Positions 57,112-61,150 of a DNA stretch of 64,000 bases are shown one piece after another (the stretch's first letter is position 1; each line of letters begins with the position of its first letter). Under the pieces are notes generated by a model. That model had not been told where the DNA came from, ran no database searches, and saw only the letters and a list, made by a program, of their open reading frames with translations. The position numbers were made by a program, and so were the translations under genes. The stretch comes from Euryarchaeota archaeon UBA251. GTDB taxonomy: Archaea > Thermoplasmatota > Poseidoniia > Poseidoniales > Thalassarchaeaceae. The stretch spans positions 260 through 64,259 of the forward strand of contig DAFJ01000024.1 of assembly GCA_002497905.1 (NCBI GenBank), read 5' to 3'.

Positions 57112-57261
57112 ACCTTATTTTTCTGATTTAACGATTAGTTCATGCTAACATTTAGCGCACCTACTCCGTTTTATGTAACAAATTGTAACTTAAACAGTTG
57201 TTAAATAAGAAATATATCAAGATTGAAATATGAATGTGGTTCAGACGCTTCTGAGTACACA

Positions 57262-59799
57262 ATGGCGAATCCGATCAAGGTCGCGAGGATTCGGGGTCGA
57301 CATCGTCGACTTATCCTCATTCAACTCGCTGTTGAGTCCGGGACAGTGACTGAGATTGCCCAGCGAGCCGGTCTTCATGTTCCTCACGTGTCGACGGAAC
57401 TCAAGCGGATGCGTCAGGAAGGACTCATTGAACTAACGGATGCTCCTGGAAGTAGAGGAGCATCTCTTGCATTAACTGCCTCTGGATTCAGTATGTTGGA
57501 GTCAGATGAGCTTTCACGGATTACTGAAGTTTTGTTCGAGGAACAGAAACCAAAATCATGTGCAGTCATCTCTATTCTTGGCCGGGATGCTCTCCTTCTT
57601 CTCTCTGATCGTGTCGAATCTTCGGTTGTACACCTTCCATTGATTGATGGTACATGGACAATCGCGGAAACCCGTGAAAGGAGTTCACGCCATTACAATC
57701 AGATGTTTGAGAGGTTGGATGCTCATTTTGAGTCCAATCCTGAACGCTTGGAAGGTTGGTTGGATGCTCGTTTCGGTCTGTTGCGGATTCGATTGTTAGA
57801 CGATGCTGTCATCAATCGTATTGCATTGAACCGTTGGGTGGAAATAGATACTGGATCTTACGATCAGGAACATCCACTGTCCGCCGACCCATCTGCTTGG
57901 CAGTTAGGAAGAGTAGGGCGCGACGGCCCTCCTGCGATGTCAGTAAACTCTGTAGTTAGTCAAGTAGCTTCTGATGAGGTGTCCATGCAACTTATTCAGA
58001 TTGCAAGTACTGGTGGTGCATTTTCAATCGGCCGTCGTCGAATACTTCAGAGGGAAAGCACACCTTTGCCCCTCGGAATTCTAACCGATTGGATAGAAAT
58101 TGTACATCCTCGCCTCCGACCTCAGGTCCGTTCCTCTCGACTTGTTGCGCTTCAAGAACACATCCTGCGTGGTCGTACCGGCGGTAGAGCCCGTCGAGTA
58201 TCAGATGCGACTCTTCGTAGATTCAAAGATGACTTTGGAGGGCGAGAATTCACAGAGGAATGGGATTATGATTACGTTACGATTAACGATCTTTCAGCGA
58301 CTGGCATTCAGTCTCTACTTATCTGGGCTCTGAATCGACCGATTTCGATGCCATTAGTCCTTGACGTTCCAACTCCTTTGCCAGATGTACTTTCTCGTAG
58401 GATTCATCGTTCTGAGGACTTACGACTTCTCATCGCACCGTGGTCCACAATCCAAATGACACGCGGCGATCGTCTCGAACATCACCCCATCCATCGTCTC
58501 CCAGATCTCCGCTGGATTCGTTCCGATGGAACCGAAGGTATCGTGCATATTGGATATGGTGCACCCTCCTTGTTTAGGCCACCTCTTGGATGGAGTGTCC
58601 CAGATAGTCCCGAGGAACTCGATGATATGTCAACTTCCTTCACTACATCCATGCGTCCTCCATTGATTGAGGATACTCTTGAGGAGCAAATCCTGTATGC
58701 TTGTTCCATTCATGGTGATGGAGACGAAAAATTCGCTAATTCGATAGAACGGGTTAACCCATTGGCAGCATGGATTGCATCGAGTGATGTGAACCGGATT
58801 GACCGTTGGCAGAGAACTCATGATCGCATGGAAAATCACTGGTCAAGTCTACTTGCAGTAAATCAGGTTCCAATCTCACGTATTCCTGAGATTATCTGGA
58901 TTACTTCGGATGAGTGGAGGTTTGCTCTTGATCAACATCTCAATGAAGTTCTCATCGTCGATGATGAGAAGCGCAGCATTATGCGTCGAATTGCGTTGTA
59001 TGCGGAGGATGAGATGACGCGTTCTTGGGCGTCAGGATGCCTTCTATCAATCGCTCAATGGTTAACGAATAATGAAGTCGCTGATTTGCTTCGATGGGGG
59101 ATCGATGCTTGGATTAAATCTCCACCCATTCGTTGTTCTGGTACTTTGTCAGGTATTGCCTATCTGCTATCGATGTATCCCGAATCTCGCAAGGGAGGTA
59201 TCGAGATAATCTCTGAATCTCTTATTCGTAGATCCTACACTCTTCCAGTCAACCATGATTTACAGACATGGAGGTTGTTAATGCATTGGAATGAATTTGG
59301 TTCTGCACCTGATACAAGGGATATCATACGCATTATCCAGCATTTACCATGGTCATGGTGGTCATCACACGCTGCCGAGGTTCTCACAATTCTTACCGAG
59401 AGTGGGGCTGGTCGTTCAGAACTGTCATGTAATCCAGCTCCTTGGCCGGCTCTTCTCTTCCAGCCCCTCGATTCTGAGATTGCTTTGCCCCTTGCTCCTC
59501 CGGGAATCCATCCAGGTTTTCGTCCAAGCCTTTCAGATAGAATTCGACGCCTACTATCGTCTACGCGCTTCGATGAAGCGGTACAGGATTCCTTGATCGA
59601 TGCGGCTCAAGCTATCGAGGATATGAGGGCGGACCGCCCCCCTCGTCCAGGCTCTACACATCGTCACGTAGGTTGGCTTTGTCGCCCAGTAGAGCAGTGG
59701 CCTTCTTCTCATCATCTAATCGATGTTGATGGTTCTCCTGCAATTATGCAATTACTTGGTAGAATGTCCGCCGGAATCCCTCAGATACCGTATCGGTGA
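57262..59799 (+). CDS. 845-aa protein with an N-terminal ArsR/TrmB-like winged HTH fused to a large Trp-rich helical domain of unknown function
   Basis: HRRLILIQLAVESGTVTEIAQRAGLHVPHVSTELKRMRQEGLIEL is a wHTH. I saw no P-loop or nuclease motif in the remainder. ATG at 57262; the track start at 57223 is TTG. Confidence 0.7.
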   Translation: MANPIKVARIRGRHRRLILIQLAVESGTVTEIAQRAGLHVPHVSTELKRMRQEGLIELTDAPGSRGASLALTASGFSMLESDELSRITEVLFEEQKPKSCAVISILGRDALLLLSDRVESSVVHLPLIDGTWTIAETRERSSRHYNQMFERLDAHFESNPERLEGWLDARFGLLRIRLLDDAVINRIALNRWVEIDTGSYDQEHPLSADPSAWQLGRVGRDGPPAMSVNSVVSQVASDEVSMQLIQIASTGGAFSIGRRRILQRESTPLPLGILTDWIEIVHPRLRPQVRSSRLVALQEHILRGRTGGRARRVSDATLRRFKDDFGGREFTEEWDYDYVTINDLSATGIQSLLIWALNRPISMPLVLDVPTPLPDVLSRRIHRSEDLRLLIAPWSTIQMTRGDRLEHHPIHRLPDLRWIRSDGTEGIVHIGYGAPSLFRPPLGWSVPDSPEELDDMSTSFTTSMRPPLIEDTLEEQILYACSIHGDGDEKFANSIERVNPLAAWIASSDVNRIDRWQRTHDRMENHWSSLLAVNQVPISRIPEIIWITSDEWRFALDQHLNEVLIVDDEKRSIMRRIALYAEDEMTRSWASGCLLSIAQWLTNNEVADLLRWGIDAWIKSPPIRCSGTLSGIAYLLSMYPESRKGGIEIISESLIRRSYTLPVNHDLQTWRLLMHWNEFGSAPDTRDIIRIIQHLPWSWWSSHAAEVLTILTESGAGRSELSCNPAPWPALLFQPLDSEIALPLAPPGIHPGFRPSLSDRIRRLLSSTRFDEAVQDSLIDAAQAIEDMRADRPPRPGSTHRHVGWLCRPVEQWPSSHHLIDVDGSPAIMQLLGRMSAGIPQIPYR

Positions 59800-59831
59800 C
59801 TTGATAACGGAACGGAGTCGGAGTATGCTTG

Positions 59832-60098
59832 CCCCGACTGCAACACCGTGCTGACGACCTCCCTCGCCGGAAGGAAGGATGACGTTCGGTACCACGTTCG
59901 GGGATTCGCCGTCGATCGAAGTTCACGGGGACCATCTGGGATGATCCGTGAGGCAAACGACGGCTGGACGGACTATGGGTCCCCGGTTGACCGAATGGGA
60001 TGATTCATGGGACAACCAATCCGTCCGACAGACGTCCTGGGGCAGGGTCAGGCCCGTGAGCTACGGCGATGAAGCGGGAAGTTACGCCCCGGGACACA
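59832..60098 (+). ncRNA. Candidate multi-hairpin H/ACA-type guide sRNA: four tandem K-turn-capped hairpins, the last two followed by ACA boxes
   Basis: Hand-folded. H3: 10-bp lower stem 60034-60043/60086-60095, pocket of 9+7 nt, upper stem 60053-60057/60073-60078, K-turn (GA 60058-59; GC-UACG-GC; bulge GAU 60068-70; GA 60071-72), ACA at 60096-98. H2: 8-bp stem 59965-72/60020-27, K-turn (GA 59989-90; CC-GAAU-GG; bulge GAU 59999-60001; GA 60002-03), ACA at 60028-30. H1 and H0 have the same architecture but no ANA box. The region is locally GC-rich and has no credible ORF. Confidence 0.55.
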
Positions 60099-60142
60099 GA
60101 CTCTGTCGGATGTTTCAATTCACTCCTCCTCTACCTAAGGCC

Positions 60143-61150
60143 ATGAGCGAACGGATTGGCCTTCTTGGTGGAACGTTCGATCGCCTCCATGTAGGCCATC
60201 ATCGCCTGATTGAAGAGGTCGCCGCTCGCTGCGATAATCTTGAGATTCATGTGACTTCAGACAGTATGGCTTCAGCAAAGGGAAATCAGGTCCAATCTTA
60301 CGACCAGCGCTTTGAATCACTTTCTACATTTATTGAACAGACTGGAGTTCAAGCTTCAGTACACATGTTAGATGATCCATTCGGACCTGCACCACATCGG
60401 GAAGATTGTGTAGTCATTGGTTGCACCTCTGAGACACTAGATGGTTGTGAGCGAATCAACGAGATGCGTCTTGAAGCGGCATTGAAACCATTGGAAATTG
60501 TGGTTGTGGCACATTTCATCGATGAAGCAGGGGAGATCCTTTCATCATCACGAATTAGGAGCGGTATAGTATCACCATCTGGGACTCTCTGGATTCAGGC
60601 ATCGGATTTCGATACTGTTCGTTATATGCCTGCAGTCCTTGATGAGGAGTTGAAGCAACCTTTGGGAACGTTGCACAAGGGTCCAGAGGATAATCCATCC
60701 ATCGCCCTTGAATCCGCTCTTTCAACTGTGAAGGATAAATCCATGATTATCGCAGTTGGGGATGTCACCGTTCTTTCTCTCGAAGAGAGTGGTCATATCC
60801 CGCGTGTTGCAGTCATTGACGGTTGTACGAAAAGGCAGGAATGGAGTCCATCATCTCGGATTACTCTTGATGAGTCTAAACGCTTCCATGCGGTCAACCC
60901 AGCAGGAACGCTAACGCGATCTATGTACGAAGCTTGTCGAGATGCCATGCATTGGGATGGACCCACGGTTATCGATGTTGAAGGAGAGGAGGATCTTTCT
61001 CCGATTCCTTTGATTCTAATCTGTCCCCTAGGTACAGTCATCATGTATGGTCAGCCAGGAGAGGGGATCGTCGTCCGTCGTGTGGATTTAGCCGCCAAAT
61101 CTAGGGCTCGCCGTTTTCTTGATGCGTTTCAGTCAACGGAGTCGAAGTGA
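60143..61150 (+). CDS. Bifunctional CoA biosynthesis protein: archaeal/eukaryotic-type phosphopantetheine adenylyltransferase fused to a DUF359-like (GTP-dependent dephospho-CoA kinase) domain
   Basis: The N-terminus GLLGGTFDRLHVGHHRLI is the cytidylyltransferase (T/H)xGH motif. The C-terminal half IIAVGDVTV..PRVAVIDGCTKR resembles DUF359. ATG at 60143; the upstream 65 codons of the track ORF overlap the RNA locus. Confidence 0.7.
   Translation: MSERIGLLGGTFDRLHVGHHRLIEEVAARCDNLEIHVTSDSMASAKGNQVQSYDQRFESLSTFIEQTGVQASVHMLDDPFGPAPHREDCVVIGCTSETLDGCERINEMRLEAALKPLEIVVVAHFIDEAGEILSSSRIRSGIVSPSGTLWIQASDFDTVRYMPAVLDEELKQPLGTLHKGPEDNPSIALESALSTVKDKSMIIAVGDVTVLSLEESGHIPRVAVIDGCTKRQEWSPSSRITLDESKRFHAVNPAGTLTRSMYEACRDAMHWDGPTVIDVEGEEDLSPIPLILICPLGTVIMYGQPGEGIVVRRVDLAAKSRARRFLDAFQSTESK

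Follow-up and report, generated by a model that had tools for sequence, protein, structure and literature searches.

Genomic setting

The 64,000-nucleotide (nt) stretch of Euryarchaeota archaeon UBA251 that we analysed (contig DAFJ01000024.1; hereafter the window) contains a spacer of 343 base pairs (bp) between an open reading frame (ORF) of 858 amino acids (aa) that contains a helix-turn-helix (57223-59799) and a coenzyme A (CoA) gene (ATG 60143-61150). A preliminary description of this DNA had called the spacer GC-rich, and its composition bears this out, with a GC content of 0.60-0.62 at 59800-60099 versus ~0.45-0.52 in the surroundings. It had also drawn four consecutive hairpins capped by kink-turns (K-turns) in the spacer and taken some of them for H/ACA pseudouridylation guides. 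As far as sequence comparison can tell, this H/ACA reading is supported and essentially right. We consider it probable, at roughly 0.8, that the spacer encodes one independently transcribed archaeal box H/ACA small RNA (sRNA) of ~270 nt with four tandem K-turn hairpins. The features of the locus are as follows.

59801-59807, + strand: TATA-like box TTGATAA, putative promoter of the sRNA, conserved in position among homologues
59830-60101, + strand: whole sRNA, ~270 nt, its 5' end placed from the TATA-like box and its 3' end ~3 nt past the last ACA
59832-59903, + strand: hairpin 0 (H0), no ANA box; lower stem 59832-37/59898-903; both stems covary
59838-45 (CUGCAACA) and 59890-97 (UACCACGU), + strand: H0 pocket, cores invariant in 21 sequences
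59846-52/59883-89, + strand: H0 upper stem, with GA 59853-54, apex 59855-77, bulge 59878-80 and GA 59881-82
59908-59964, + strand: hairpin 1 (H1), no ANA box; lower stem 59908-14/59958-64, covarying
59915-21 (AUCGAAG) and 59953-57 (GCAAA), + strand: H1 pocket, complementary to 23S
59922-29/59945-52, + strand: H1 upper stem, with GA 59930-31, CC-AUCU-GG 59932-39, bulge GAU 59940-42 and GA 59943-44
59965-60030, + strand: hairpin 2 (H2) with ACA; lower stem 59965-72/60020-27; both stems covary
59973-81 (CUAUGGGUC) and 60012-19 (ACAACCAA), + strand: H2 pocket, 9+8 nt
59982-88/60004-11, + strand: H2 upper stem, A60007 bulged, with GA 59989-90 and CC-GAAU-GG 59991-98
59999-60001, + strand: H2 bulge GAU, followed by GA 60002-03; ACA 60028-30 directly after the lower stem
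60034-60098, + strand: hairpin 3 (H3) with ACA; lower stem 60034-43/60086-95; both stems covary
60044-50 (AGGGUCA) and 60081-85 (GUUAC), + strand: H3 pocket, 7+5 nt, refined by guide-target fit
60051-57/60073-80, + strand: H3 upper stem, G60074 bulged, with GA 60058-59 and GC-UACG-GC 60060-67
60068-70, + strand: H3 bulge GAU, followed by GA 60071-72; ACA 60096-98 directly after the lower stem
60143-61150, + strand: fused phosphopantetheine adenylyltransferase / GTP-dependent dephospho-CoA kinase (PPAT/DPCK), the downstream neighbour outside the RNA; Pfam PF01467 and PF04019, NCBIfam NF001985

Conservation and covariation

Homologues were fetched via the downstream protein, taking one genome per species. 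These comprised four close relatives (UBA40, SAT164, XB_MAG72 and SAT165) with CoA-protein identities of 81-97% (aa) and ~17 further Poseidoniales (Marine Group II, MGII) genomes with protein identities of 34-47%. The resulting comparative set of 21 homologues was aligned with MAFFT. At 59830-60101 the RNA was 98.5-100% identical to relatives L001, L002 and L004, while in these same relatives the CoA gene was 79-95% identical and the upstream gene 78-91%. A GAUGA-type motif arrangement recurred directly upstream of the orthologous CoA gene in MGIIa and MGIIb. Across the 21-sequence alignment, variable blocks alternated with invariant ones (GCAACA, (U/C)ACCA, CGAAG, GCA, GGUC, ACNACC, GGGUCA, GUUA and every GA...UGA), and conservation between groups ended right after the last CACA. 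Indels among the homologues were not in multiples of three, and the lengths of the apical segments varied.

The Rfam covariance-model scan that the preliminary description had suggested recognised no known family: at gathering thresholds nothing relevant was found in the whole window or in five homologous loci, and at E ≤ 10 the spacer gave noise only. Judged from its sequence, the element is a new H/ACA-type sRNA of planktonic Thermoplasmatota that is conserved class-wide.

Single-sequence statistics were uninformative, and support for the hairpins is comparative and strong. The minimum free energy (MFE) of the single sequence was unremarkable, the + strand having a z-score of -0.86, no better than shuffles. 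A crude scan for K-turn-capped hairpins counted 43 in the window versus ~35 in shuffles. Aligning the orthologous spacers and looking for compensatory changes, a check proposed at the outset, gave a clear answer. On the unfitted MAFFT alignment of all 21 sequences, RNAalifold called 38 pairs, 22 of them compensatory. Among the 35 RNAalifold pairs that were counted, 97.4% of cells were paired and 22 pairs had changed on both sides, as opposed to 1-5 pairs in a control in which the 3' partners were slid by 1-3 columns. The observed pairing and covariation values were matched by 0/500 shuffles.

Because MAFFT misregisters three stems, we also segmented each sequence on invariant anchors and counted all eight stems in the resulting curated alignment. 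Here 44/66 pairs changed on both sides, and 92% of cells were canonical versus 31-46% when the partners were slid. The 100% pairing of the lower stems is partly by construction, since these stems were fitted in the curated alignment, but change of sequence with pairing kept is not a product of fitting.

Two helices of the MFE fold were rejected. For the hairpin at 59815-59841, the substitutions in L002 and L004 were not compensatory. For a 7-bp helix joining CCGACAG (60025-31) to CUGUCGG (60103-09), the downstream arm was unconserved outside the window's own group; this helix would enclose H3 and compete with the lower stem and ACA of H2.

Architecture of the four hairpins

All four hairpins followed one plan in 21/21 RNAs, namely a lower stem, a pocket, an upper stem, a GA, a C-stem with its loop, an NNU bulge and a second GA. 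Lower stems measured 6-11 bp across the 21 RNAs, with a shorter one in the H0 of L014. In the upper stem, 8 positions were stacked in H1 and 7 in each of the other three hairpins, and the linkers between hairpins were 0-7 nt long. The internal-loop (pocket) strands were invariant while the stems covaried. The K-turn signature, with its 3-nt bulge ending in U on the 3' strand, was invariant in all four hairpins of the 21 RNAs, and in the window its bulge and second GA read GAUGA at 59878, 59940, 59999 and 60068. The preliminary description had proposed a shared apical module with a 2-bp stem and a tetraloop. Its K-turn plan holds for all four hairpins, but the 2-bp stem and tetraloop are not found in H0. 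Likewise, its bulge that is always GAU is true of the window's own group, but the bulge is NNU across the homologues. The stems that it had placed, which are the lower stems of all four hairpins and the upper stem of H1, are all present at the coordinates given in the list above.

Archaeal H/ACA RNAs are characterised by a pocket hairpin, a K-turn or K-loop, an ANA after the lower stem and bipartite complementarity around a U-N (PMC7991803, PMC2377435, PMC11077068). H2 and H3 display all of these features at the level of sequence, with caveats concerning their spacing and upper stems that are weighed below. The placement of ACA right after both lower stems (60028-30 and 60096-98), already pointed out in the preliminary description, is kept in 21/21 sequences for each hairpin, and the distance from pocket top to ACA is 16 nt in H2 and 15 nt in H3 in every lineage. 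The distance from ANA to the target U is 14-16 nt (PMC7991803); in Pyrococcus H/ACA RNAs, 14-15 nt to the ANA is functional, and 13 or 17 nt is non-functional (PMC2377435). In archaeal H/ACA RNAs the K-turn or K-loop stands 5-6 bp above the pocket (PMC7991803, PMC2377435). In the RNAs studied here, one or two positions beside the G.A pairs are usually non-Watson-Crick, leaving 5-6 regular pairs. In H3, the two positions per side just above the pocket, 60051-52/60079-80, are G.A/G.A in the window and G-C pairs (GG/CC) in MGII. Two internal loops needed redrawing: that of H2 is 9+8 nt rather than 6+6, and an H3 pocket of 9+7 nt with AAGUUAC as one strand proved two nt too long at the top, 7+5 being better.

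In the window, H0 and H1 share this architecture and lack an ANA box, as had been claimed. Elsewhere neither hairpin has a conserved ANA box: an AAA comes after H0 in MGIIb alone and after H1 in MGIIa alone. The length between pocket top and lower-stem end is 13-14 nt in H0 and 10-14 nt in H1, so that the distance is not constant, unlike in H2 and H3. The loop cores of H0, GCAACA and (U/C)ACCA, were invariant in 21/21 sequences.

The apex of H0 is a weakly structured 23-nt element with a weak C-stem. Within it, GCCGGA (window 59866-59871) is conserved in the window's group, MGIIb and L014 (apices L010 and L013-L017). The MGIIa apex is without GCCGGA and has 6-10 nt fewer than that of the other groups.

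Complementarity to 23S ribosomal RNA

Target searches covered ribosomal RNAs (rRNAs). The 23S sequences tested were those of MGIIb, Thermoplasmatota-like lineages and haloarchaea, the haloarchaeal 23S being taken from the rRNA operon of plasmid pHmuk01. To reach 23S contigs of the clade, we used as bait a spurious ORF that runs antisense to domain V of 23S and took the contigs encoding its relatives. One of them, L160, was assigned to MGIIb because its adjoining eIF-6 is identical to a Candidatus Thalassarchaeum protein. L164 and L165 belong to the same lineage as L160 or a close one, and the full-length 23S of L165 is 96% identical to that of L160. L159 and L161-L163 provided related 23S from Thermoplasmatota-like lineages. 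L152-L158, which come from other lineages and have the A loop CUGCUCG, were set aside.

Three of the four pockets matched 23S rRNA. Against L160, using canonical geometry, zero offset and 1000 dinucleotide shuffles, H3 matched helix 69 (GUAAC-UA-UGACCCU) with 12 Watson-Crick bp (0/1000 shuffles), and H2 matched the A loop (GGUUGU-UC-GCCCAU) with 12 bp, one of them G.U (0/1000, a value qualified below). H1 matched UUGC-UA-CUUCGAU with 11 Watson-Crick bp at zero offset (1/1000). The first matches, in haloarchaeal 23S, had been H3 on helix 69 (GUAAC-UA-UGACCCU) and H2 on the A loop (GGUUGU-UC-GCCUAU), and the helix 69 site was the top match of H3 in haloarchaeal, MGIIb and five other archaeal 23S. 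In the 23S and 5S of L165, the same three sites were the only strong matches. Hence the bipartite rRNA complementarity around a U-N for which the preliminary description had recommended searching was found in 23S for H3, H2 and H1, each at ≤ 1/1000 shuffles, and was not found for H0. Its proposal that H2 and H3 are H/ACA guides is supported by their covarying stems, K-turns, ACA in 21/21 sequences, spacing of 15-16 nt and 23S complementarity. No targets for the pockets were found in E. coli rRNA or MGII 16S, and a scan of viral contigs for the archaeal helix 69 sequence gave no matches.

When the sites are aligned with E. coli 23S, H3 leaves U1915 unpaired, H2 leaves U2555 and H1 leaves the U at position 2496, the last lying only 59 nt from the H2 site. 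Pseudouridine at helix 69 position 1915 is universally conserved (PMC2584109). At 2496, E. coli and haloarchaea have C, and a U is present in all six clade 23S, which share an unusual peptidyl-transferase ring sequence, UUGCUACUUCG. At E. coli 2491-2504, L159-L165 have UUGCUACUUCG versus UUGGCACCUCG in E. coli and haloarchaea (G2495C, C2496U and C2499U). The ring is otherwise near-universal at 2491-2504, and the altered stretch is exactly the site matched by H1.

For H0, six clade 23S keep UGUUGC, the complement of its 5' loop strand, at E. coli 2607-2612. In some clade 23S UGUUGC is followed by the complement of the 3' strand, in an order opposite to that of the guide, which we treat as a lead only. 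A swapped-order pairing of H0 to E. coli 2607-2620 was tried and rejected: it was suggestive for one guide/target pair only, where 2/300 shuffles reached it, and its 3' half is lost in L165.

The rRNA contigs yielded several further observations. With the EURY806 probe site, we fetched 120 MGII 16S contigs, none of them with a 23S gene. MGII 16S is unlinked to 23S, a 23S being present in 0/115 contigs bearing 16S (up to 14 kb; L031-L150). The eIF-6 gene adjoins 23S in L160, L164 and L165, and L164 has an apparent 5S gene after 23S, judged by eye. The protein database contains > 100 clusters of spurious 'proteins' that are translations of the strand opposite 23S domain V. They come from many archaeal lineages, and some carry 'hypothetical protein' names in NCBI and JGI. 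The stored DNA of L159 does not translate to its recorded protein, one neighbouring called gene has an in-frame stop and another has Ns, and the gene calls disagree with the stored sequence.

Promoter and flanking genes

In 19/21 homologues, a TT(G/C)AWRW box begins 27-35 nt upstream of where the H0 lower stem starts, amid neighbouring sequence that is otherwise unconserved. This box points to a promoter belonging to the RNA itself, with transcription probably beginning at the base of H0. The sRNA gene is directly 5' of the PPAT/DPCK gene on the same strand in all 21 loci (MGIIa, MGIIb and the window lineage), and the stretch from the sRNA to the CoA start codon is 40-75 nt, unconserved and variable in length.

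The true start of PPAT/DPCK is ATG 60143 and not GTG 59948, as tblastn of relatives spans residues 1-335 from the ATG. A 400-aa ORF (59948-61150) consists of the CoA gene plus 65 codons running upstream into the sRNA. Because homologues align only from ATG 60143, this extension is spurious, in agreement with the earlier suspicion that the ORF masks the locus. Automatic annotation will miss the RNA, since it lies under the spurious N-terminal extension. In the upstream 858-aa ORF, the sole match is to a short helix-turn-helix near the N-terminus (residues 28-78), and its ~780 other residues matched no Pfam or NCBIfam family. The window also encodes Orc1/Cdc6, Bud32 and archaeal-type CoA enzymes, from which we conclude that it is archaeal.

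Proposed function and alternative explanations

Following the mechanism of the family, L7Ae would bind each K-turn and Cbf5-Nop10-Gar1 would dock on the lower stem and ACA of H2 and H3. The 23S rRNA would pair with both pocket strands in such a way that a U-N at the foot of the upper stem stays free, and Cbf5 would isomerise the unpaired U. The predicted sites are U1915 in helix 69 for H3 and, for H2, U2555 in the A loop, or U2554 under a U-N-N registration. By analogy, H1 most likely guides pseudouridine formation at 2496 independently of ACA, as atypical H/ACA RNAs of Sulfolobus and Pyrobaculum do.

A number of observations weigh against this interpretation. First, H0 had no convincing canonical target in any rRNA tested. 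Second, H1 lacks an ANA and its distance from pocket to stem end varies from 10 to 14 nt, on which grounds canonical anchoring of Cbf5 at H1 is unlikely. Third, the 16-nt spacing of H2 is within the range of 14-16 nt (PMC7991803) but one above the functional 14-15 nt (PMC2377435), and the 7-8 stacked positions of the upper stems fit the rule of 5-6 bp only if the non-Watson-Crick ones are counted with the K-turn. Fourth, at two substituted positions the H2 guide of the MGIIb L010 group no longer fits the A loop of MGIIb 23S, although the MGIIb 23S tested against H2 is from a different genus than the L010 group. The 0/1000 shuffles for H2 are also somewhat optimistic, because its pocket boundary was trimmed after the first match had been seen. 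Finally, the target tests drew on 23S from outside the window lineage and MGIIa, namely from MGIIb, related Thermoplasmatota-like lineages and haloarchaea.

We considered whether H0 and H1 are instead non-catalytic, L7Ae-bound tethering or chaperone modules, leaving H2 and H3 to modify neighbouring sites. H0 and H1 would then hold segments of 23S domain V or another partner, like the non-modifying H/ACA small nucleolar RNA (snoRNA) snR30/U17. The lack of a conserved ANA after either hairpin and their inconstant distances from pocket to stem end (13-14 nt in H0 and 10-14 nt in H1) agree with such a role, as do the closeness of the H1 site to the H2 site, the invariance of the H0 loop despite the lack of a U-N target, and the conservation of UGUUGC at 2607-2612. 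However, H1 pairs in the exact canonical geometry of a guide, with an unpaired U-A and zero offset, none of which tethering needs. Moreover, RNAs without ACA guide pseudouridylation in Sulfolobus (PMC11077068), and the swapped-order match of H0 is weak. We therefore regard tethering as rather unlikely and favour a guide function for H1.

A broader proposal, which we hold still more tentatively, is that the hairpins jointly clamp strands of the nascent 23S core, making the RNA both a modification guide and a folding chaperone for the peptidyl-transferase centre. The clamped strands would be helix 69, the peptidyl-transferase ring (2491-2504), the A loop (2549-2562) and perhaps, by way of the invariant GCAACA of H0, also 2607-2612. 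Two modules would be catalytic and anchored by ACA, and the two without ACA would rely on their neighbours or on L7Ae/Nop10 alone. In evolutionary terms, the RNA might then stand between the canonical and the atypical H/ACA RNAs.

Processing of the transcript into separate sRNAs, such as an H0-H1-H2 unit closed by the first ACA and an H3 unit, would mean that the cell contains no four-hairpin RNA. The ACA after H2 (60028-30) is followed by a linker of 3-4 nt to H3 in 21/21 sequences, and H/ACA RNAs normally end 3 nt past the ACA (PMC7991803). Nevertheless, archaeal H/ACA sRNAs with two and three motifs keep their internal ANA uncut (PMC2377435). The sole positionally conserved TATA-like box is upstream of H0, and linkers of 0-7 nt leave no room for internal promoters. 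We judge such processing improbable relative to a single four-hairpin sRNA.

Alternatively, the region might act in cis as a 5' leader of the CoA gene, with L7Ae on the four K-turns regulating translation. Both the strict synteny with PPAT/DPCK, which spans MGIIa, MGIIb and the window lineage, and the conservation of all four K-turn signatures would fit a leader, but conservation stops at the last ACA, and the 40-75 nt before the start codon are unconserved and variable. A leader would also leave unexplained the ACA boxes, their fixed distances and three pockets complementary to rRNA, which makes it very improbable. Lastly, chance structures in a GC-rich spacer, or a protein-coding region (the 400-aa ORF at 59948-61150 or a 51-aa ORF at 59848-60003), could account for a fold no better than shuffles, for K-turn-like hairpins that are common by chance and for the overlapping ORFs, but we consider this reading refuted by the near-invariance of the region among relatives with diverging genes, its extensive compensatory covariation, indels that break the frame, variable apical lengths and a homologous protein that starts at ATG 60143.

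The sRNA proposed here would be of interest for several reasons. Marine Group II ranks with the most abundant archaea in surface ocean waters. In a single transcript, the RNA would join canonical motifs anchored by ACA to motifs that have a lower stem and no ACA. This bears on a question left open in PMC11077068, namely to what extent guiding independent of ACA occurs outside Crenarchaeota and how Cbf5 is positioned without ACA. The analysis further yields predictions that can be tested directly on environmental RNA, namely three specific pseudouridines within the ribosomal catalytic core of an uncultured clade. The main interest of the RNA lies in H1, which has a strong canonical target and no ACA, and in the concentration of the three identified targets on the ribosome's catalytic core.

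Comparison with known RNAs

The K-turns of the element are of the GA/GA type bound by L7Ae, as in box C/D sRNAs, and GAUGA on the 3' strand resembles a C box. Unlike box C/D sRNAs, it has no terminal pair of C (RUGAUGA) and D (CUGA) boxes, no C'/D' pair and no guide of 10-12 nt ahead of a D box. We rejected a box C/D assignment: the 5' strands conserve GA only, and Rfam C/D models scored ~9-13 bits (E ~9) versus thresholds of 41-70.

H3 resembles guides of helix 69 such as snR191 in its predicted site, the universally conserved loop position 1915 of E. coli numbering (PMC2584109), although organism and sequence differ. Among haloarchaea, an example of a helix 69 guide is the H/ACA RNA that serves H. 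volcanii 1940/1942. In yeast, snR191 guides the two most conserved rRNA pseudouridines (PMC2377435).

Described archaeal H/ACA RNAs have one to three hairpins (PMC7991803, PMC11077068, PMC2377435), which agrees with the remark in the preliminary description that four would exceed the known range. A literature search on four-hairpin H/ACA RNAs gave nothing usable, and another turned up no H/ACA guide RNA described from Marine Group II or its relatives, both searches being weak given that H/ACA is not searchable as a term. Among the closest known counterparts of the RNA are multi-motif H/ACA sRNAs from Pyrococcus and Thermococcus, such as the three-motif Pab35 (PMC2377435), which share tandem hairpins, each composed of lower stem, pocket, short upper stem and K-turn or K-loop. 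In these sRNAs, too, an ANA stands after a lower stem at ~14-15 nt from the pocket, targets are clustered in domains IV and V of 23S, and a single RNA has several sites (PMC2377435). In contrast to these sRNAs, the RNA described here has four hairpins rather than at most three, two of them without a conserved ANA. It also shows no detectable sequence or Rfam similarity to them, belongs to mesophilic uncultured hosts and has one predicted site, 2496, that is U only in this clade.

H0 and H1 resemble the atypical H/ACA-like guides of Pyrobaculum and Sulfolobus islandicus, which have a K-turn upper stem and a guide but no ACA (PMC11077068). Those RNAs were shown to guide pseudouridylation with Cbf5 (PMC11077068) and hence provide a precedent for hairpins without ACA. 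Proteins from Pyrococcus also accept atypical guides (PMC11077068). However, the atypical guides are single hairpins without a lower stem, whereas H0 and H1 keep a covarying lower stem of 6-9 bp and are fused to hairpins bearing ACA in one transcript. H0 and H1 may thus work like the atypical class without ACA, yet they are not members of it as defined in PMC11077068.

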